From positions 1-64,000 of the forward strand of contig JBHLNZ010000001.1 of the NCBI GenBank assembly GCA_048941015.1: a stretch of DNA of 64,000 nt, in the 5' to 3' direction. The DNA comes from Promethearchaeota archaeon (GTDB taxonomy: Archaea; Asgardarchaeota; Lokiarchaeia; Sigyniarchaeales; SOKP01). A program made the translations under genes and the position numbers. The notes under the pieces are model-generated. The model did not search any database, had not been told where the DNA came from, and saw only the letters and a program-made list of their open reading frames with translations. This document shows positions 41,026 through 51,316 of the stretch, one piece after another (position 1 is the first letter of the stretch; every line of letters starts with the position of its first letter).

Positions 41026-41706
41026 TTACCAAATAAGTGGAATTAATTTTTTCTTGGTTCTTTGAGCATATTCTTTATATCCCTCAAGTTCTTTATGAAG
41101 CATTCGATCTTCTAAAATTGTGCGTATCACTATTCCAGCAATACCAAGTGCAGCAGGAATTAATGAAAAAAGAGAACCAAGGGCTAAACAATAAAAGATT
41201 ATAAATAGAATAAATCCTAAATACATTGGATGCCGTACAATTCGATAAGGGCCAGAAGTAATTACTGTATGGCCTCGATCTTTTTGAATCTCCACTGCTT
41301 TTGATAAAAAGGTATTTTCTTTCATAACTAAGAATATTATTACCAATCCCAATGACATTCCTATAAATCCAATTATTTCCACTAAAAGAGGAACACTTGA
41401 CCAACCATATTTCTTTTCAAAACCAGGAATTATAAATGTTGGAAAAAAGCCAAATCCCATGAAAAGCATGACAATCTTATCCCACTTTTCTTTAAATTGT
41501 GGTTTAGCCCTCTTTTGAAGCATCTCGGGGTCATGTTTACTAAAATATAAAATATAGCTCGTAAAGAAGGTAAAAAATATTCCAAGATAAATCCATACTT
41601 CAAGCCAAAAAAAACTTCCAAAAGGGATAAATAACCCTAATCCAAGGAAAGCTGTAACTAATACAACAAGACTAATTAAAATCGGTTTAGATATTTTTTT
41701 AGGCAT
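41026..41706 (-). CDS. Isoprenylcysteine carboxyl methyltransferase (ICMT/Ste14/PEMT) family membrane protein
   Basis: VITSGPYRIVRHPMYLG, EDRML..EL.GY.EY, LIP.IW. Confidence 0.88.
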   Translation of the reverse strand: MPKKISKPILISLVVLVTAFLGLGLFIPFGSFFWLEVWIYLGIFFTFFTSYILYFSKHDPEMLQKRAKPQFKEKWDKIVMLFMGFGFFPTFIIPGFEKKYGWSSVPLLVEIIGFIGMSLGLVIIFLVMKENTFLSKAVEIQKDRGHTVITSGPYRIVRHPMYLGFILFIIFYCLALGSLFSLIPAALGIAGIVIRTILEDRMLHKELEGYKEYAQRTKKKLIPLIW

Positions 41707-41750
41707 AAATACAAGAAATTTTTATCTTATTTAATTTTTCTAATCTTTTT

Positions 41751-42791
41751 TTAGATATTTCGTAATCTTGGATCTAGTGCATCCCTTAATCCATCGCCCA
41801 AAAGCATAAATCCAAGAACTGTAATTAATATCATCAATCCCGGCCAGAACACTGCCCAAGGTGCGTCAAATAAACGAGCCATAGAAATCCAAATTTCCTT
41901 TCCCCAATCTATTAACCCTGGATCAGTAAAACCAAGAAATGCTAAGCCTGCTAAGTTTAAAATAACTGATCCAATGTCAAAAGTCACCGAAATTATAATT
42001 GGATTAATAACATTAGGAATTATATGTTTAAACATTATTCTACGGTTGTTAGCACCGACAACTTTAGCTGCTTGTACATATGGCAATTCTTTTGCTTGTA
42101 GGACCGAAGCTCTGATTAATCTTGCATAAGATGGTACTCCTATTATACCAAAAGCGAACATAAAAGCTTCAATTCTTTGTCCTATTATTGCTACAAACAC
42201 TAACGCAAGAATCAAACCTGGAAAGGAAAGAAGTACATCCATTATTCTCATCAAGATCAAATCTAACCAACTACCAAAATATCCTGCCATAGTACCAAGT
42301 AAGATTCCTACTATTACACTAAAACCAACAGCAGGAAATGCTATTACTAATGAAGCCCTTGCCCCATAAATTATTCTTGACAAAACGTCTCTTCCTAAAC
42401 TAGTAGTACCTAATAGATGTTCTGGAGATGGTGGTTCATATGAACCTAAAAACATTCCCATAGTTTGGCTTTCAAAACTATAAGGAGCAATCCATTGGCC
42501 AAAAATCGCAAAGGTAATTACCACAAAGATAATAATTATTCCAACTAAAGTTAAAAATGATTTCAGTCGCCGAATAAATTTCCGCTTACTAATCGTTTTT
42601 TCATATTCAAACTCTCTTTTTGACAATTCTTCTAATCGAGAACCCGGCACAAATAAGAATTTTATGTTTTTAAAAATCCATCGCAAGATAATTATTAATG
42701 TATTCTGCTTTTCCTCTTCCTCTCTCGACTCCTCTGTTTCGATCTCCTTAAATTCAATAGTTTCTTCTAATTCCGTCATTTCTTTAACCAA
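41751..42791 (-). CDS. Oligopeptide ABC permease OppC/DppC (orphan in this window)
   Basis: HLLGTTSLGRDVLSRIIYGAR, YVQAAKVVGA (EAA-loop equivalent), LGDGLRDALDPR. Confidence 0.92.
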   Translation of the reverse strand: MVKEMTELEETIEFKEIETEESREEEEKQNTLIIILRWIFKNIKFLFVPGSRLEELSKREFEYEKTISKRKFIRRLKSFLTLVGIIIIFVVITFAIFGQWIAPYSFESQTMGMFLGSYEPPSPEHLLGTTSLGRDVLSRIIYGARASLVIAFPAVGFSVIVGILLGTMAGYFGSWLDLILMRIMDVLLSFPGLILALVFVAIIGQRIEAFMFAFGIIGVPSYARLIRASVLQAKELPYVQAAKVVGANNRRIMFKHIIPNVINPIIISVTFDIGSVILNLAGLAFLGFTDPGLIDWGKEIWISMARLFDAPWAVFWPGLMILITVLGFMLLGDGLRDALDPRLRNI

Positions 42792-42809
42792 TTATTATAT
42801 CTTTCTTTT

Positions 42810-43472
42810 TTAGAATGTGAAAATCACGTCAAAGGGAAATTTATCAAAATTTTTTTCTAAGGTTCTTTTAAATCCCTCTGAAATTGGCTCAAATCCTTTT
42901 CCAATATAATTTCCAATTGAAATATAATCAGGTTTTATGTCTAAAAGAAAATTCTTTAAACTTTTTAAGTTATCAACATTATCATTAATCCCCCTAAAAA
43001 ACATTATATAAATTCCTAAATGACCTTTGTAAGTCCTCTTGAATCTGACCATCCCGTCTAATAACTCTTCTAAACTTAAATCAACACAACAAGGATTCAC
43101 CCTTCCAAAATTTGAAGGCTCGATACTATTAATATTAACTGCTATGAAATCACATTCTAACAATCCTTTTTGCGCTAATTTATTACATAATATGGAGCAA
43201 TTTACATACGTCCCAATTTTTTGATTTGGGTGAGCTTTCTTAATAAGATTGATTAAAAATTTTAATCCATGGAATATATATTGATCATTTGGAATTCTCA
43301 ACCATATATAGTCAGGACTTCCATTTTGGAATAAAAAATGATTTACTTCTCCAATGATTTCCTCGGTAGGAAAATCTTTTACTGAGATTGACTTCAGCGA
43401 ATCAAAATGAATTGGCATTATTATACCAAATCGCTTGTCATGCTGAATTTCATTAATATATTTATATTCCAT
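42810..43472 (-). CDS. Degenerate radical-SAM-fold protein (COG0731/Tyw1-like) lacking CxxxCxxC
   Basis: PDYI, NCSIL, F.RVNP, YKGHL..MFFRGIND, IKPD patterns match the family; the Cys triad and GEP motifs are absent. Confidence 0.6.
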   Translation of the reverse strand: MEYKYINEIQHDKRFGIIMPIHFDSLKSISVKDFPTEEIIGEVNHFLFQNGSPDYIWLRIPNDQYIFHGLKFLINLIKKAHPNQKIGTYVNCSILCNKLAQKGLLECDFIAVNINSIEPSNFGRVNPCCVDLSLEELLDGMVRFKRTYKGHLGIYIMFFRGINDNVDNLKSLKNFLLDIKPDYISIGNYIGKGFEPISEGFKRTLEKNFDKFPFDVIFTF

Positions 43473-43512: not shown

Positions 43513-46449
43513 CTAATCCTCGCTTACATCTTTAAAAAGTAGTCTTTCTGAAGGCAATTTCTTAGATTTTATCTTATCTATCCTTTCAAAACATTGTTTT
43601 GCTTTCTCATCATTACCTAGTGCCTGATAAGTTCTTCCCAGCTTTCTATATGTATCAAATACATACCATCCTGTAGGATTTAATTCTAAAGCCGTCTTGA
43701 ATTCTTTGATTGCTTCTTCATATCGCCTAGCCCACATTAAAACTTCTCCATACGTATCGTGATAATTACCAACATCTTGACCAATAGTAACTAACTTTTT
43801 ACCTGTTTCTAATGCTTCCTCTATTCTATTAAGCCTTCCTAAGAAAATTGTTTTATTATTAAGCATATCAAATTCATCGGGGTACTTATCGAGTGCAGTT
43901 TCACAAACTTCCAATCCTAAATCATCCTCACTAATCTCATATGCAATTAAGGATTTAAGTTTAAGAAGAGTTATCTCTTCCTTAGGAAATTCCAATATTA
44001 GTTTATCTAGTAGCATTAAAGATTCATTTGGTTGTTCGGATGAAAAAAGAAGCCAACATTTGTGCCTTTTGTAATCTAGAAGTATAGGTACTAATTCAAT
44101 CGCTTTATCGATCGCTTTTATTGATTCTTCATGCATTCCTATTTGTTCCATTACCATTGATTTTAGGTCATAATATCTCGCTTGATTTAGCTTATTTTGA
44201 TCCAATGATATAGTCATATCAATCTCGGTAAGAAATTTATCTGGTTTTATTTGTGCTTCACTGAAATTGTAGATAAGATCGTAACCATTAACTAAAGCTC
44301 CTGCTAAAGTTGCGATCGGATGATTTGAATGGCGATCTTGAACAGATCTAGCTACTTCTAAGGCTTTATTGAACTTCCCTTGCGTTAAATAAGAATAAAT
44401 TAAGATGAATGATACGGAAGTCTCCAATTTCGGATTCTTATCAAAAAGATTAATAATAATATCTTTTTTTATTATTCTCTTTGCCTCTTTATACCTATGG
44501 ATTATGCTGAGTAAAATTGCTTTTAGAATATAAAACTGTTTATCCTTAGGATTTAATTTGATTATTTTATCTATTAGTTCAAAATCTTCTTCATGAGATA
44601 TAACGCAACATTTCCTATTATACATTATAAAAATAATTTTTGTTTTTAATGCTAAAAGATTCTGTGAATCGCTTTTTAATATATTATCAACAATTTTAAC
44701 TGCTTTTTCATAATCGCCTTTATAAAGCAAGATATATGCTTTTTCGCATAATAATGAGGGATTACTTGCTATTTCCAAGCCTTCATCAATAATATAATCC
44801 GCCTCATCAAATTCTAATAAATAAAACAACGTAATTGATTTCAAAAGATAACCAATATACACTTCAGGATATTTCCTAATAAGTTCTTCTGATAATCTAA
44901 TTGCCTCTATTAAATCAAAAGAATTTGTTGCTACAAGATCTCTTACGATTAAATCTTCTAAATCATTAAACTTCTCTTTATTTTTATTATAAACAGATTT
45001 AATTTTCGATTTTTTACCCTTTAAGAGTAATTCATTTATTTCGTCAAAAATGTCTGCATTTTCATGATTATATAATTTCTTGAATTCAATGGTTGTCAAA
45101 AAATCTGATTTGGTTAATTGCATCACATCTAATGCTTTAAAAATTGAATCATCTATACTATAGTAATATTCATCTTCCATTGATTCTTGTTTTATTATCG
45201 AAGGTTCAAATGATTGAAACTCCTCAAATATATTCTGCCATATAAACCCTTCTCTTTTAGCATCATCTGAAATTAATTTCTTTTCTGTTCCAATTTTATA
45301 AGCGAGATATTTAATATATTCGGGTAAAAATTTTCGCAATGAATCTTTTAATTCATTAACAAAAATATTTTCACATATTTCATTAATAATGTTGTTTAAA
45401 AGGCTAGAAACATTAAATCTTGAACTTATTTCTCTCTCATAACCTGCTAATTTATTTAAGTATGTATATTTTGTAATATAATCATCAATAATTGCTCTTA
45501 ATATACGTTCTAACTTTTCATTTGCTTGAAAATAAAATTCTTTATCAGGAAATACGTCTAATCTGAAAAATTTCACAGGGTACAAATCCTCATCTACTAT
45601 TTTCTCGATAAAGAAATCAAGGGTAGTTTGTTTAATATTATACTTCTTTGCAAACGCCTGAGGAGAAACATACTCTGGATATTGATCTGGATGATTAATT
45701 GAAAGAAATAATAAGATCTTATTGAAATCCTCCTCTTCTTCTAACATATTTTCTACTTTTGAATAACTCATCTTTAGAGTATTGTTTAAAAATCGAAATT
45801 TGATATTATCATCTATAATGTCATATTTATCGTAGAAATCATTTGTATACATGGTTATTTCTTCTATTCGCTTGCTTTCCTCCTCCAAAATTGATTGGCG
45901 ATCTAGATCATAGGTTTTCAGCATCCTAAAGTACTCTACTTTACCAGTAGAAGTTATATAATATTCTTTATTCTCGTTCTTAATGAAACCCTTATCAATC
46001 AAAAAATTTTTACTCTTGGATAATGAGGATTGATTAATACCTAATGGTGGCTCTCGAAAATCGGACCATTTGCAGGATTCATTATTATATAACATCCATA
46101 AAATCCAATGATCATAATTCCTCTTTCTCAAAATTGCTTTTGGAGGATATACTAATTTCGGTCTTCCCAATTCCTCATCATAGGAAATCTCATTAAAATG
46201 GGATCTACCTTCAGTTGTTATCCTATAATGTCCCCTTTTAAATCTATCAATATAATCTTTATTAATTAGATCATTGATATAATTTGAAAGAGTTGATTCA
46301 CTGATCTCTGATTCTTCTGTAAAATCCCGCCATTCGCAATATTCATTATTAGAAAGCATCCAAAGAATTATATATTCATAATTTGGATTTGTTCCAGGAG
46401 GAGATAATATCTCTTTTGGGGGTAAAATTAAATTTTTTGAGCTGCTCAT
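43513..46449 (-). CDS. Tandem winged-helix plus TPR-repeat protein, putative transcription regulator
   Basis: Two repeats NY[ED].[IW]ILWML.NNE.C.W.DF...I..S.LS....LI.K..I...Y.IT..G; C-terminal TPRs (e.g. YHDTYGEVLMWARRYEEAIKEFKTALELNP). Confidence 0.8.
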   Translation of the reverse strand: MSSSKNLILPPKEILSPPGTNPNYEYIILWMLSNNEYCEWRDFTEESEISESTLSNYINDLINKDYIDRFKRGHYRITTEGRSHFNEISYDEELGRPKLVYPPKAILRKRNYDHWILWMLYNNESCKWSDFREPPLGINQSSLSKSKNFLIDKGFIKNENKEYYITSTGKVEYFRMLKTYDLDRQSILEEESKRIEEITMYTNDFYDKYDIIDDNIKFRFLNNTLKMSYSKVENMLEEEEDFNKILLFLSINHPDQYPEYVSPQAFAKKYNIKQTTLDFFIEKIVDEDLYPVKFFRLDVFPDKEFYFQANEKLERILRAIIDDYITKYTYLNKLAGYEREISSRFNVSSLLNNIINEICENIFVNELKDSLRKFLPEYIKYLAYKIGTEKKLISDDAKREGFIWQNIFEEFQSFEPSIIKQESMEDEYYYSIDDSIFKALDVMQLTKSDFLTTIEFKKLYNHENADIFDEINELLLKGKKSKIKSVYNKNKEKFNDLEDLIVRDLVATNSFDLIEAIRLSEELIRKYPEVYIGYLLKSITLFYLLEFDEADYIIDEGLEIASNPSLLCEKAYILLYKGDYEKAVKIVDNILKSDSQNLLALKTKIIFIMYNRKCCVISHEEDFELIDKIIKLNPKDKQFYILKAILLSIIHRYKEAKRIIKKDIIINLFDKNPKLETSVSFILIYSYLTQGKFNKALEVARSVQDRHSNHPIATLAGALVNGYDLIYNFSEAQIKPDKFLTEIDMTISLDQNKLNQARYYDLKSMVMEQIGMHEESIKAIDKAIELVPILLDYKRHKCWLLFSSEQPNESLMLLDKLILEFPKEEITLLKLKSLIAYEISEDDLGLEVCETALDKYPDEFDMLNNKTIFLGRLNRIEEALETGKKLVTIGQDVGNYHDTYGEVLMWARRYEEAIKEFKTALELNPTGWYVFDTYRKLGRTYQALGNDEKAKQCFERIDKIKSKKLPSERLLFKDVSED

Positions 46450-46498
46450 TTTTTAAAATTCCTCTTGTAACTTCATTTAACTCCTATAATAACGTATA

Positions 46499-46582
46499 GT
46501 TCGAAGTTATATTTATACTTTACACTTCGAAATAAAGTATGAACCATTGCCGAAGTTCAAACTTCACTGCGAAGTTCGAAGT
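46499..46582. promoter_or_regulatory. Cluster of (T)CGAAGT/ACTTCG(A) motifs in the divergent promoter, putative operator array
   Basis: cgaagt at 46502, 46551, 46570, 46577; acttcg at 46524; gaagt-N4-acttc palindrome 46552-46565. Confidence 0.55.
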
Positions 46583-46678
46583 ACAAACCTATAAATGAAT
46601 TATTATCCTAATAAAAATTAATAACAAAAAAGAAAAAACGAGAAAGAAACACAAAAAAAAGTTAAGAGGTTATAAAAA

Positions 46679-46918
46679 ATGGCACAAGTAGAATTAAGAA
46701 AAGTTGAGCCAAAAAAATGTGTTGATATAGAATTAATAAAATTAGATGAACTCCCTGTTCCCGAAGTCATAGAAGAAAAGGAAGAGGAGATTATAAAGAA
46801 AAAAGGATTGAAAGGCATTATAAATAAATTTCGTAATCATGCCAAATATCATGAAGAATTCATAAATATTGAAAAAGTTAAACGTCAATTAATTTATAGG
46901 AACTTTGGAGTTAATTAA
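46679..46918 (+). CDS. Small hypothetical protein (79 aa)
   Basis: AGAGGT SD-like motif and A-rich spacer before ATG, the same leader type as two of the downstream sORFs. Confidence 0.7.
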   Translation: MAQVELRKVEPKKCVDIELIKLDELPVPEVIEEKEEEIIKKKGLKGIINKFRNHAKYHEEFINIEKVKRQLIYRNFGVN

Positions 46919-46960
46919 AATTTTTTCAAGTAAGATTATGTTAAAAATTGATGATAAAAA

Positions 46961-47044
46961 ATGAGTTTAAAAGAAAAAATAAAGGTATGGGTTTGTAGAC
47001 ACTTCTGTTCTGCGTCATGCCGAGCGGAAATCTGCGCTGAATGA
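46961..47044 (+). CDS. Cys-rich 27 aa peptide MSLKEKIKVWVCRHFCSASCRAEICAE
   Basis: Translated by hand; tgatga-A-rich leader like that of the rubrerythrin gene; Cx3Cx3Cx4C; locally GC-rich against AT-rich flanks. Confidence 0.6.
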   Translation: MSLKEKIKVWVCRHFCSASCRAEICAE

Positions 47045-47082
47045 AATTATAATTAAAATAAAAAAAAAGAGGTACAAAAAAA

Positions 47083-47148
47083 ATGGCAAGAAAAGAAAGA
47101 TTGATAATAATTAGAAATGATGAGTTTAACTCGAGATATTTTAGATAA
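47083..47148 (+). CDS. 21 aa peptide MARKERLIIIRNDEFNSRYFR
   Basis: AGAGGT SD-like leader; paralogous to the next sORF. Confidence 0.7.
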   Translation: MARKERLIIIRNDEFNSRYFR

Positions 47149-47205
47149 TTAATTTCAAAATATAAAAATATATTCAAAATAAAAATTAAAAAGAGGTAGA
47201 AGGAA

Positions 47206-47274
47206 ATGAACGAGAAAAAAAGAATAATTGTGTTAAAAAACGCGAGCTATAACGTAAAATATTTCAAATGGTAA
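47206..47274 (+). CDS. 22 aa peptide MNEKKRIIVLKNASYNVKYFKW
   Basis: AGAGGT SD-like leader; aligns without gaps to the previous sORF; T-rich terminator-like run at 47286-47298. Confidence 0.7.
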   Translation: MNEKKRIIVLKNASYNVKYFKW

Positions 47275-47308
47275 TCAAATTCACATTTTTTTATTTTTAA
47301 GACGTATT

Positions 47309-47534
47309 AAACAAATCCTCCAATTTGTTTGAAGCTTTCCGTACAATCACTTAATAGGATGATACCCACGCACCTGGGCAGACGAGTGCTCAGGTGCATT
47401 CCATCCATCAACAATTAATGCAACCATAATTTCATAAAATTCTGATCATTTATGACTCCTGCAGCCGTCTTCTTTGTTGGAATAATCATCCCAAATCTGT
47501 TAATAGTCTTAATAGATGGGTTTGGTGGAGTCAT
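47309..47534. ncRNA. Candidate structured non-coding RNA (three hairpins)
   Basis: GC-enriched intergenic block with stems 47309-16/47323-30, 47370-80/47387-97, 47452-59/47527-34 and inner stem 47495-503/47509-17. Confidence 0.5.
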
Positions 47535-47652: not shown

Positions 47653-49095
47653 TTGAATACTTCAGAATTGTATGAGCTTTTTAGGCACACTCAAAAAATA
47701 AGTGAAGATTTTAAAGTCAATTTGAAGAAAAAAAAGACATTTCAAACGCTTTTTTTCCTCTATTTCATGATATATGTTTTTATAGGTATTTTACCTGCGA
47801 ATATTGATAATTTACTTATTACACTTCCTCAAACTACTAAGATGGGTATTGGGATCATAATTACAAGTAGTCTTTTTACAGGTATAATTAGTGTATTAAT
47901 ATTTGGTTATGTTGGTGATAAATTATCCTACAAAGCTTCACGTAAAAAGCTTTTTATTGTTACAAACTTGTTATGGATAATTGGATATGGCCTCTTTTCA
48001 TTATCGTTAAACTATATCTCTTTATTGATTTTAACCGTTATAGCTGCTATAGGCACTGGAGCATTTTTACCTATAGGTTTTTCATTTATAAGTGATTTAT
48101 TTCCTTCAGATAAACGGGGTAGTAAATTCGGGACAATGCAATTTGGAATGATTGTAGGTAATGGTACTGGAATCATTTTTGGAGCAATTTTAGGGACTCT
48201 TTTAAACTTTAATGGTTGGAGACTTGCATATGGAATAAGCTTTTTCCTTGGTGTAATTGCTATTTTAATGTATGTAAGTAAAGCGCAAGCTCCTATTCGT
48301 AAAAGGACAGAACCAGAATTAGCAAATTTTAATGTCGACTATAATTATAAAATTACGTTTGCCTCTATTTTTCAATTATTTCGTATAAAATCAATTATGG
48401 CAATCTTCCTTGCTGTTTTCTGTTCAGGGATAGCGCTATCCACACTTGGAAACTGGGCTATATTCTACTTATCCATAAAAATTTCCAGTTCAAATGCAGA
48501 GGGTTTAGCTACAGTTATTTATCTTTTGGTAGGATTAGGAGCCCTTCCTGGAACGATCATCGGAGGCAAAATGGGAGATTCTTCTTTGCGTCAGGGAAAA
48601 ATTAGAGGGCGAATCGTAATCTCAATAACTGGTCTTATTTCTGGAGTTTCATTAATGATGATTTTTTATATTTTTCCCTTTTTCACATACCATTCTATAT
48701 TCGTATTGATTTTCTGGATTATTTTTATTACTCTGGGTTTTATAGGATATTGCTTTTCTTATTTTTCTATGGGAAATCAATTTGCAATATATTCAGAAGT
48801 GTGTATTCCTGAGCTAAGGAGTACTGCCAATGCCATCAATGGACTAATGTTAAATATCGGAGGGATAATGGGTAACCTCATAATCTCTTCTCTTATTCAA
48901 AGCAATCTCGGTTTATTACCTTTTGCTATATTTTCAGTGTTAGCAATTTGGTTGTTTGGTTCCTTTTTATGGTTTATTGCTTACTCACAATATCCTAAAG
49001 ATGTCCTTAATCGAAGAAATGTTTTATTAGGAAGAAGAGAAGTGTTAAATCAGCAAATAAAGTCCCCTAAGCTTCATGAAGTTCTTAGAGCTTAA
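47653..49095 (+). CDS. MFS transporter (spinster-like)
   Basis: FGYVGDK..SRKKL, SDLFPSDKRG, GWRLAY, PELRSTA; 12 TM helices. Confidence 0.85.
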   Translation: MNTSELYELFRHTQKISEDFKVNLKKKKTFQTLFFLYFMIYVFIGILPANIDNLLITLPQTTKMGIGIIITSSLFTGIISVLIFGYVGDKLSYKASRKKLFIVTNLLWIIGYGLFSLSLNYISLLILTVIAAIGTGAFLPIGFSFISDLFPSDKRGSKFGTMQFGMIVGNGTGIIFGAILGTLLNFNGWRLAYGISFFLGVIAILMYVSKAQAPIRKRTEPELANFNVDYNYKITFASIFQLFRIKSIMAIFLAVFCSGIALSTLGNWAIFYLSIKISSSNAEGLATVIYLLVGLGALPGTIIGGKMGDSSLRQGKIRGRIVISITGLISGVSLMMIFYIFPFFTYHSIFVLIFWIIFITLGFIGYCFSYFSMGNQFAIYSEVCIPELRSTANAINGLMLNIGGIMGNLIISSLIQSNLGLLPFAIFSVLAIWLFGSFLWFIAYSQYPKDVLNRRNVLLGRREVLNQQIKSPKLHEVLRA

Positions 49096-49825: not shown

Positions 49826-51316
49826 TTATGCTTTAAAATCTTTCTCTCTTAATTCTTTTTCAGCATTAATATAGATTTCATTAATTCTTTGTTGGATATT
49901 TTCTATTAATGGCATTGGTTGATGTGTTTCAAGAATATTTAATGTTATATGGATCAAATTTTCTCTGTAATCTTTTTTACCTTTTTTAATCCAAGTTTCT
50001 GGATCATCGCGATTAAAGAATTCTGGACGCCAAAGTTCTTCTCGAAAGTGTTTTAATGTATGTTTTTCTGAAAGAAATTCTCCACCTTGACCAACCTTTC
50101 GAATTATATCAATAGCAAGTTTTTCTCTATTCAATTTAAATCCATTAACAAATCTTTTAATATAACTTATAATTTCATTACACATAATAATAGAAGCCGG
50201 ATTTCCTAGTAATCCTTGTCCTAGGTATCCAATATCGTGAATCAAATTTGCACCATCAAGAGTAGCCAATAATGTTGCTACACCATGTTCAAACGCTGCT
50301 TGTTGATCAAGTGAAAATGAATCAGAGCCTACTGTAGACCACATAGGAAGATTATAATAGTGAAATAGATCAGCAAAAGCAGAATTAGCAATTCGAAATT
50401 CAGGAGCACCGTATAAAAAAGTCGATAATCTCATATCTAGTGGTACCAGAGCAAAACCAGAAATAATAGGAGCACCCTTTTTCTTAAGTTGATGTAAAAC
50501 AATACCACTTAAAGCTTCAGCATTTGCTTGAGCAATTCCTCCTGCTAAAGTTACTACTGCAGTTGCTCCCATAATATCTCCTGGAGTGTAACAAATTGGT
50601 ATACCTTTTTCAGCACAAAGAAAAAGTTTCCTAATAGCTCCATATGAATGCGATAGGGGTGCGGTTGGTTCAGAGTAATGTATAATAAAGGGCTTATATT
50701 TAAGTTGCTCTGCCCCACCAGCGATTAATTCTGCCATTTCAATAATAAATGCAAGGTCTTCTCTCCCAGCTGCAGTAAAGAAAATTGGTTTGACTGAGTT
50801 TTCCATCATAGCTTTCACACAATTGATATACATTAAATTAGTTGGAACATCAGAAGGTAATGCAAATGATGCAATGAAGTCAATATTTTGACAAAAATCA
50901 GCAATTCGAGCCGCATTTTTTACATCTTGTAATACAGATAATCTGATTTGACCTGTTTTTAAATCCTGAGTACGTATTAAGTCAGTTCCCAACCCAAAAT
51001 AATTATTGTGATTTTCTAACCTCATTGCTTCCTGTCCCTCTCTATTGTAAATAGTAATACGGGAAGGAGCACTGTGAATACTTTCTTCGACTAACCAATT
51101 TGGGATGTGTACGATATCATCATCCTCAATTGTACAACCCGCTTTTTCTAAGAGTTTTACACCTTCTTTAAGAGATACACGAACTCCAATATTTTCTAAG
51201 ATCTCCAAACTTGCTAGATGGATTTTTTTAATTTGTTTTTCTGATAAAAACCTATAATGTGGTCTACAATTTTTTTCAATTGAATCTACCATTTTATTTT
51301 TACCCTCAATTTTCAT
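49826..51316 (-). CDS. Trimethylamine methyltransferase (MttB superfamily), non-pyrrolysine
   Basis: IHLASLEILENIGV, TLAGGIAQANAE, GANLIHDIG, FLSEKHT; no amber codon. Confidence 0.9.
   Translation of the reverse strand: MKIEGKNKMVDSIEKNCRPHYRFLSEKQIKKIHLASLEILENIGVRVSLKEGVKLLEKAGCTIEDDDIVHIPNWLVEESIHSAPSRITIYNREGQEAMRLENHNNYFGLGTDLIRTQDLKTGQIRLSVLQDVKNAARIADFCQNIDFIASFALPSDVPTNLMYINCVKAMMENSVKPIFFTAAGREDLAFIIEMAELIAGGAEQLKYKPFIIHYSEPTAPLSHSYGAIRKLFLCAEKGIPICYTPGDIMGATAVVTLAGGIAQANAEALSGIVLHQLKKKGAPIISGFALVPLDMRLSTFLYGAPEFRIANSAFADLFHYYNLPMWSTVGSDSFSLDQQAAFEHGVATLLATLDGANLIHDIGYLGQGLLGNPASIIMCNEIISYIKRFVNGFKLNREKLAIDIIRKVGQGGEFLSEKHTLKHFREELWRPEFFNRDDPETWIKKGKKDYRENLIHITLNILETHQPMPLIENIQQRINEIYINAEKELREKDFKA

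Follow-up and report, generated by a model that had tools for sequence, protein, structure and literature searches.

The question raised by this locus is whether two very short open reading frames (ORFs) in an archaeal contig are genes and, if they are, what their products do. The window considered here is the whole stretch of DNA analyzed, 64,000 nucleotides (nt) of a Promethearchaeota archaeon (GenBank assembly GCA_048941015.1, contig JBHLNZ010000001.1, positions 1 to 64,000). An earlier note, made from the letters alone, had pointed to two unannotated paralogous peptides of 21 and 22 amino acids (aa), each preceded by a Shine-Dalgarno (SD)-like element, and had suggested purifying selection on them. 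We conclude that the two ORFs are very likely genuine protein-coding micro-genes and that, judged from genomic context, they are tied to a large regulator with winged helix-turn-helix (wHTH) domains and tetratricopeptide repeats (TPRs), of which the peptides may be partners or ligands. The two genes are:

47083..47148, plus strand: micropeptide gene 1, 21 aa, ATG to stop, with GAGGT at 47069-47073, 9 nt 5' of the ATG
47206..47274, plus strand: micropeptide gene 2, paralog of gene 1, 22 aa, ATG to stop, with GAGGT at 47193-47197, 8 nt 5' of the ATG

Both ORFs run from ATG to stop as described, and the SD-like element and A-rich spacer reported before each are present as GAGGT and 8-9 nt, respectively. 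The gene 1 peptide starts with a basic N-terminal segment, passes through an Ile-rich strand and an N-x-x-[FY]-N turn, and ends in Y-F-R at the C-terminus; it aligns with the gene 2 peptide without gaps, with 8 of 21 residues identical. A third paralog, a 22-codon ORF (C50:80177-80245), lies on the same contig 33 kb downstream, outside the window, and a six-frame scan of the assembly (3.59 Mb, 29% G+C) found exactly three copies of the peptide motif. Residues M1, R6, I8, N12, N16, Y19 and F20 are invariant in the alignment of the three. Ungapped BLOSUM62 scores among the paralogs were 55-64, compared with at most 38 for the best unrelated ORF among 5,044 ATG ORFs of 21-24 aa from the same genome; the similarity is thus not due to chance, and the proposed gapless paralogy is confirmed. 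Tandem peptide genes are separated by intervals of 38-57 nt.

Between paralogs, the proportion of synonymous differences (pS) is 0.56-0.90, near saturation, and that of non-synonymous differences (pN) is 0.25-0.39. The least biased test of selection is comparison with L144, a metagenome contig picked solely by similarity of its regulator (N-terminus 92% identical), so that the ortholog was chosen without reference to the peptide ORFs; the upstream DNA aligns at 88%. Both peptide ORFs retain start, frame and stop in L144, and the outcome that was to count against the peptides, a frame or stop codon not kept in relatives, was therefore not observed. Gene 1 differs from its ortholog by one synonymous and one conservative change (F to Y), and gene 2 by five synonymous and four non-synonymous changes. 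Pooled, the 6 synonymous and 5 non-synonymous changes give pS 0.288 and pN 0.046 (ratio 0.16, Fisher p 0.0025), which bears out the purifying selection suggested earlier.

Three further ortholog groups were defined by the peptide motif, and in each the ORF frame is the sole one of six that stays open in every member. The ORF-frame pN/pS was 0.26, 0.37 and 0.52 in these groups, lowest or near-lowest, with about 0.5-1.3 in the other frames, and third-position differences showed a two-fold excess. In at least two loci (L234, L161), the first ~8 codons of an ~80-aa gene that precedes the peptides are joined in frame to a peptide ORF; these fusion ORFs lie about 179 nt 5' of the regulator start and apparently arose by loss of the intervening DNA. 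A 78-aa antisense ORF at 46941-47177 was considered as a separate candidate and rejected: in the two larger groups most members have stops in the antisense frames, and these frames carry no selection signal.

The peptides are members of a lineage-specific, unannotated family of 20-29-aa ORFs, further copies of which are found across dozens of genomes and metagenome contigs from related Asgard archaea. A profile built from the three paralogs (A1) found nothing convincing outside this genome (best match E 4e-4). Its weak matches in genomes of the same genus are related ORFs of 22-25 codons, with a like layout and the same GAGGT-spacer-ATG start. In the family layout, a charged N-terminus leads into a short Ile/Leu/Val strand, which is followed by an N-[PAGD]-x-[YF] turn and, usually, an aromatic C-terminus; the consensus of a 36-member alignment reads M, charged residues, I-I-I, x, N, x-x, Y, several more residues and a usually aromatic end. 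In two genera, the subtypes are a strand followed by K-N-A-G-Y, F-N-P-x-N-L, I-L-N-P-T-G-Y, and I-I-I-x-N-P-A-Y. In genus g28 the subtype is L-I-I-I-T-N ... H-S-R-Y-I-S-Y, accompanied by zinc-ribbon micro-ORFs of 32 and 46 aa. Indels between subtypes are in frame, and start, stop and SD are kept across genera. The family profile A4 scores gene 1 at 31.6 bits and gene 2 at 29.9 bits. A search of 400 Asgard genomes with the 36-member profile (E<=1e-4 per genome) gave matches in 30 genomes, all in the family-level group of the window (f1), and in 0 of 265 genomes of other families.

By direct reading, the hydrophobic run in the peptides is 4-5 residues long within an otherwise charged peptide, with at most five hydrophobic residues in succession. 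The transmembrane helix of about 18 or more residues that characterizes type I toxins and membrane micro-proteins is thus absent, and this candidate class was ruled out. Two further readings, as a proteasome HbYX tail or as a PCNA PIP box, were likewise rejected, since the motif positions in the peptides do not fit. This genome also contains four copies of another short-ORF family, unrelated to the first, whose members are 15-18 aa long and have a GAGGT SD (C5, ~11913, minus strand; C44, ~3857, minus; C131, ~5808, minus; C137, ~16458, minus), with a C-terminal consensus of roughly K-x-x-I-K-I-[IL]-A-F-x-C-x-K.

Several points weigh against the coding conclusion. Choosing groups for dN/dS by motif biases pN downwards, and a fourth motif-defined group, consisting of one subtype with 3 sequences, shows no selection signal. 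In this genome 39% of GAGGT-N6-10-ATG sites start ORFs longer than 60 aa, with 18-26% for permuted motifs; the predictive value of the SD is modest, and the SD argument is only supportive. A 29% G+C genome is also rich in short ORFs, and the ORFs could be chance frames in AT-rich intergenic DNA whose conservation reflects a protein-binding or RNA element. We regard this as the least probable of the explanations considered, and extremely unlikely: it does not account for the third-position excess, the sole frame open in all members, the in-frame indels, or the start, stop and SD kept across genera, nor for the absence of matches among 804 antisense ORFs (see below) and among the 265 genomes outside the group.

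The context in which the peptide genes are found is a divergent cassette, whose other coding features in the window are:

43513..46449, minus strand: 978-aa regulator with two (probably three) winged-helix domains, a helical linker and ~15 or more TPR-like helix pairs
46679..46918, plus strand: 79-aa protein, first gene of the operon, with a C-terminal tail K-R-x-L-I-Y-R-N-F-G that echoes the peptide core
46961..47044, plus strand: 27-aa Cys-rich micro-ORF (C-x3-C-x3-C-x4-C) between the 79-aa gene and peptide gene 1, present in the window locus and not in the second locus of this genome

The genome encodes only two regulator paralogs (978 and 831 aa, 41% identical), and all three of its peptide genes lie 0.6-0.8 kb 5' of these, in divergent orientation. 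Both loci share the same architecture, with the regulator on the minus strand, a repeat-rich intergenic region and a small-ORF operon on the plus strand. Among the loci found by the peptide profile alone, 26 of 30 hold a divergent regulator N-terminus within the 3-kb locus, a few hundred bases away. The reverse search started from the first 200 aa of the regulator and yielded 80 loci from metagenomes and 80 from genomes; the 1.5 kb upstream of each regulator gene was examined. These 160 loci contain 67 small ATG ORFs on the divergent strand that score at least 10 bits by the peptide profile, versus 0 of 804 on the other strand. Where at least 800 nt of flank was available, 42 of 131 regulator loci have a peptide match, at a median of 446 nt from the regulator start. 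Once ~80-aa, Cys-rich and zinc-ribbon ORFs are added, 51 of the 70 loci with a full-length N-terminal match carry a recognizable class, and several apparently empty loci hold still more divergent small ORFs with an SD.

The phyletic ranges also match. The regulator N-terminus was found in 104 of 134 f1 genomes at 1-10 copies each, together with one sister-family genome, and in 0 of 25 genomes of five other families of the class. Peptide subtype differs with the regulator paralog. At the level of sequence, the peptides thereby show co-occurrence and co-diversification with the regulator, and a tight, directional linkage to its gene. In one locus (L054, G008:C22), two complete three-peptide arrays stand in tandem 1.9 kb apart, the second with no adjoining regulator gene.

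Members of the regulator family range from ~830 to 1000 aa. More than 1,087 homologs are present in public data, all named 'tetratricopeptide repeat protein' and all from Asgard metagenome-assembled genomes, with source labels such as Promethearchaeota, Hodarchaeota and Lokiarchaeota. Pfam matches include HTH_45, HTH_34, MarR and many TPR families. The AlphaFold2 prediction for the 978-aa protein reaches a mean pLDDT of 85, with values exceeding 90 through most of the repeat region. It places winged helices at about residues 23-76 and 111-164 and a third winged-helix-like unit at about 238-307, followed by a helical linker and an unbroken array of helix pairs that spans residues ~460 to 961. 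In a Foldseek comparison with the PDB, long TPR superhelices ranked best: TTC7B, the OGT TPR domain, APC/C TPR subunits, Ski3, SPINDLY, and Tom71 with the Hsp70 C-terminal tail. No RRNPP receptor is among the best matches listed. Across 48 homologs, the majority-residue fraction is 0.63-0.76 in the DNA-binding part and 0.54-0.56 in the TPR part; K796, K831, N863/864 and N894 are conserved and might form a carboxylate clamp or an Asn ladder. A conserved DNA-binding part with a divergent TPR part would be expected if paralogs diversify a ligand surface, although repeats often diverge in this manner anyway.

The functions first offered for the peptides were pheromone or ribosomally synthesized and post-translationally modified peptide (RiPP) precursors, or small regulatory peptides. 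The last of these fits the context best, because the peptide genes are the terminal genes of an operon divergent from the wHTH-TPR regulator in the 26 of 30 profile-found loci. Our preferred explanation, whose probability we judge to be about evenly balanced, is a cognate pairing in which the TPR regulator takes the peptides as partners or ligands, in a logic resembling that of RRNPP systems without homology to them. The peptides, and perhaps also the tail of the ~80-aa protein, would dock on the TPR superhelix; docking would alter regulator occupancy of the repeat-rich divergent promoter, and each regulator-peptide pair would form its own autoregulatory feedback switch. Similar [RK]-[YN]-F-x-aromatic tails are found on unrelated operon products, namely the ~80-aa protein, the 46-aa zinc ribbons (which end in T-T-x-N-F-D-F in genus g28, resembling the peptide tails) and the peptides themselves, a pattern that fits a single putative docking site.

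RRNPP systems of Firmicutes and phages (Rgg/SHP, PlcR/PapR, PrgX, AimR/AimP) are the closest in logic, as they too fuse a DNA-binding domain to a C-terminal TPR-type domain. In Rgg/SHP, an HTH-TPR regulator faces a divergent, unannotated gene of ~22 codons, the product of which is active through its C-terminal eight residues (PMC3509411). The cassettes described here resemble Rgg/SHP in the very short, usually unannotated peptide gene beside a divergent regulator, and RRNPP systems generally in the many paralogous receptor-peptide pairs per genome. Differences are numerous: there is no sequence homology, and the regulator carries a tandem winged helix in place of an XRE-type HTH or Rap-type N-terminus, Pfam giving winged-helix families and no Rgg, PlcR or RNPP family. 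The TPR array is about three times longer (RRNPP receptors have about 5-9 repeats, compared with ~15 or more helix pairs here, for which peptide binding is putative), and its best matches in structure are eukaryote-type superhelices. RRNPP propeptides leave the cell by way of a signal peptide, or as a hydrophobic SHP-type body with PptAB, are trimmed to a short C-terminal peptide and return through an oligopeptide permease (Opp/Ami). The peptides described here are hydrophilic and have no signal sequence or SHP-like hydrophobic body, so that an export-type propeptide is not seen. The host is an archaeon, and the conserved neighbors of the cassette include no exporter, processing protease or complete Opp importer. 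These systems are therefore best described as candidate peptide and HTH-TPR regulator pairs that evolved independently in the Asgard lineage, kin to RRNPP in logic only.

Tail docking by TPR proteins is established for Hop and Tom70-71 with the Hsp70/90 EEVD tail, APC3 with Ile-Arg tails, PEX5 with PTS1, and OGT. The regulator model is structurally like Tom71 (solved with the Hsp70 tail), the APC/C TPR subunits and OGT, and the C-terminal tail common to the small operon proteins is a further likeness to the ligands of these tail-docking proteins, if docking occurs here as proposed. Hop/Tom70-71, APC3, PEX5 and OGT differ in being eukaryotic chaperone, ubiquitin-ligase, import and glycosyltransferase scaffolds without DNA-binding domains.

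The linkage on which the partner explanation draws would be equally expected if the peptides were simply what the regulator controls, and other observations also count against a partner role. Four of the 30 peptide loci have no regulator within 1.5 kb, and the current profile recognizes a peptide in about one third of regulator loci. In L143 (Ga0209636_10040592), whose regulator N-terminus is 93% identical, both peptide genes have been lost as one clean block, in the region aligned to window positions 47036-47281. L143 retains the ~80-aa gene, the Cys-rich ORF, the T-tract and hairpin element described below, and the 5' 1.7 kb of the regulator gene, at which point the contig ends. The peptides are dispensable in the organism of L143, since they were deleted while their neighbors remain.

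These same observations, the loss in L143 and the four loci with no nearby regulator, favor the alternative that the peptides are regulated output, acting as small effectors (e.g., a beta-hairpin) on some other target, on one another, or on the ~80-aa protein and the zinc ribbons. Regulators commonly lie divergent from the genes they control, and the operon holds several kinds of small protein (~80-aa, Cys-rich 27-mer, and 32- and 46-aa zinc ribbons). We consider this alternative somewhat unlikely, as it leaves unexplained the like C-terminal tails on unrelated operon proteins and the tracking of peptide subtype with a regulator paralog whose DNA-binding part is conserved, and no other conserved partner gene was seen.

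The small proteins of the operon are themselves unusual. The order is the ~80-aa protein, optional Cys-rich or zinc-ribbon micro-ORFs, and one to three peptides last, followed by a T-tract. The 79-aa protein has a 91-aa paralog in the second locus (L001) and orthologs 5' of regulator genes in two genera, where the cassette consists of a ~990-aa wHTH-TPR gene divergent from a 69-99-aa gene and then one to three tandem micro-ORFs. It belongs to an orphan family of 41 clusters at E<=1e-3 among 1.84 billion representatives, almost all of 69-95 aa; no Pfam family scored above threshold and the ESM Atlas gave no usable match. The Cys-rich micro-ORF has equal Cys spacing in L097, L143, L144 and two further loci. 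Its coding status appears less secure than that of the two peptides, because comparison with L144 gives no synonymous excess (pS 0.065, pN 0.091). Cassettes of genus g28 (L067, L072-L074, L079 and others) contain the extra 32- and 46-aa micro-ORFs with C-x2-C ... C-x2-C zinc-ribbon signatures, which presumably resemble the haloarchaeal zinc-finger micro-proteins of C(P)XCG type; this resemblance does not extend to the peptides.

The peptides could alternatively be secreted, as RiPP or archaeocin precursors or as unmodified pheromones, with the TPR protein as receptor or as immunity or regulatory factor. Evidence on this point includes the genes flanking the cassette:

41026..43472, minus strand: three genes 3' of the regulator, encoding a 220-aa protein, an OppC-like permease and an ICMT/PEMT-like methyltransferase
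47653..49095, plus strand: major facilitator superfamily (MFS) transporter downstream of the cassette (Pfam MFS_1, 8e-32)

The short, tandem, paralogous genes with a conserved C-terminal half would suit precursors, as 20-30-aa ORFs, often in tandem paralogs with an aromatic C-terminal core, are also characteristic of the RiPP precursors PqqA, mycofactocin MftA and the triceptides. The window likewise offers a transporter 3' of the cassette and, 3' of the regulator, a permease and a weakly radical-SAM-like protein. The 220-aa protein has no Pfam match in the window copy, however, and the radical SAM match of its g28 ortholog (23 bits, E 9e-5) is below the Pfam cut-off; an N-terminal C-x3-C-x2-C Cys triad is missing. 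Its gene recurs in 4 of 4 genus-g28 loci checked and is absent from L001 and from five genus-g1 loci. The OppC-like ABC permease, which has an acidic N-terminal extension and follows the regulator in the window locus only, is a lone gene with no OppA/B/D/F beside it and is absent from other loci, and the methyltransferase, the third gene downstream of the regulator, is a membrane protein. The MFS transporter is kept in L143; in other loci unrelated neighbors occupy its place and it is not conserved beyond close orthologs. Transporter, permease and methyltransferase thus do not accompany the cassette in other genera, nor at the second locus of this genome. Pfam scans of the neighbors revealed no PqqD-like, YcaO, LanM or peptidase domain, and no maturase, recognition element or peptidase is conserved near the peptides, which sets them apart from RiPP precursors and leaves that part of the original proposal without its modifying enzyme. 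The hydrophobic stretch is too short for a signal peptide, and neither a signal-peptide-like nor a double-glycine leader was found in the peptides. We consider secretion unlikely. With no signal-like leader and no conserved exporter, an intracellular role for the peptides is favored over export.

Further downstream, in an uninterrupted 496-aa ORF (49826-51316), a weak match to PYLIS_3, the pyrrolysine insertion element of mttB, was observed at 50230-50331 on the minus strand (23.4 bits versus a gathering score of 38). The ORF is a candidate MttB-like gene by reading, and the next gene looks like one for a corrinoid protein.

The non-coding parts of the cassette bear on whether the ORFs act in cis. 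They are:

46497..46596, no strand: divergent promoter region common to the operon and the regulator, with direct and inverted repeats on AGTTCGAAGT / GAAGTTC..GAACTTC
47286..47298, plus strand: T7 and T5 tracts directly 3' of the last peptide gene
47305..47410, plus strand: conserved non-coding element with a GC-rich hairpin, 3' of the T-tract, with its counterpart at about 4271-4375 of L001

The repeats of the promoter region fall into families D1, D2, I1, I3, I4 and I9 and are followed by CTATAAAT at 46589-46596; the repeats would serve as operators and CTATAAAT as a putative TATA element. The T7 and T5 tracts, matched in L001 by a T8 and T5 tract 3' of the third paralog, are likely an archaeal oligo-T terminator of the small-ORF operon. 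The two copies of the hairpin element (~80 nt) in this genome share 82% identity and differ by a 6-nt indel in their loops, and identity to the copies of L143 and L144 is about 90%; the element is absent from the other 158 regulator loci, and Rfam gave no match for it or for the cassette. A minus-strand ORF across this element, in which the 6-nt indel would be in frame, was rejected: the second copy lacks a start and is interrupted by an in-frame stop, and the indel falls in the hairpin loop.

Translation of the ORFs, e.g., by stalling at the Ile run, could in principle control downstream sequence, making them cis-acting leader peptides. Many members do have 3-5 consecutive Ile/Leu/Val codons, and the T-tract and, in this species group, the hairpin element lie 3' of the last ORF. 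Conservation extends outside the Ile run (N, Y/F and the C-terminal aromatic), however, and some subtypes have no such run. Up to three ORFs occur in tandem, each with its own SD, and the downstream genes differ between loci, none being for amino-acid biosynthesis. The hairpin is 3' of the T-tract, is found in four loci only and persists where the ORFs are deleted. A universal run of regulatory codons, alternative terminator and antiterminator structures overlapping the ORF end and a downstream operon for the matching amino acid, the features of a leader-attenuator, were not found, and we judge a leader role very unlikely.

Annotation of Asgard genomes leaves out genes of this size almost entirely; the family is invisible to gene callers, and the profile described here finds it with no false matches in controls. 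A full-text literature search found no description of this cassette and turned up no archaeal peptide-sensing transcription switch or ribosomal-peptide signal. If the peptides were exported, these cassettes would give archaea their first ribosomal-peptide systems for communication between cells, with each wHTH-TPR protein as the receptor of its own micro-peptide; we regard this as improbable. Were it true, the 1-10 receptor-peptide pairs per f1 genome would constitute a repertoire of 'pherotypes' that evolved independently of the RRNPP systems of bacteria, with a eukaryote-like TPR superhelix as its scaffold. The finding ties micro-genes to a large, expanded and uncharacterized family of wHTH-TPR regulators, and thereby bears on gene regulation in uncultured relatives of eukaryotes. 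It may also bear on whether long TPR superhelices dock short peptides or tails in Asgard regulators, as they characteristically do in eukaryotic scaffolds.

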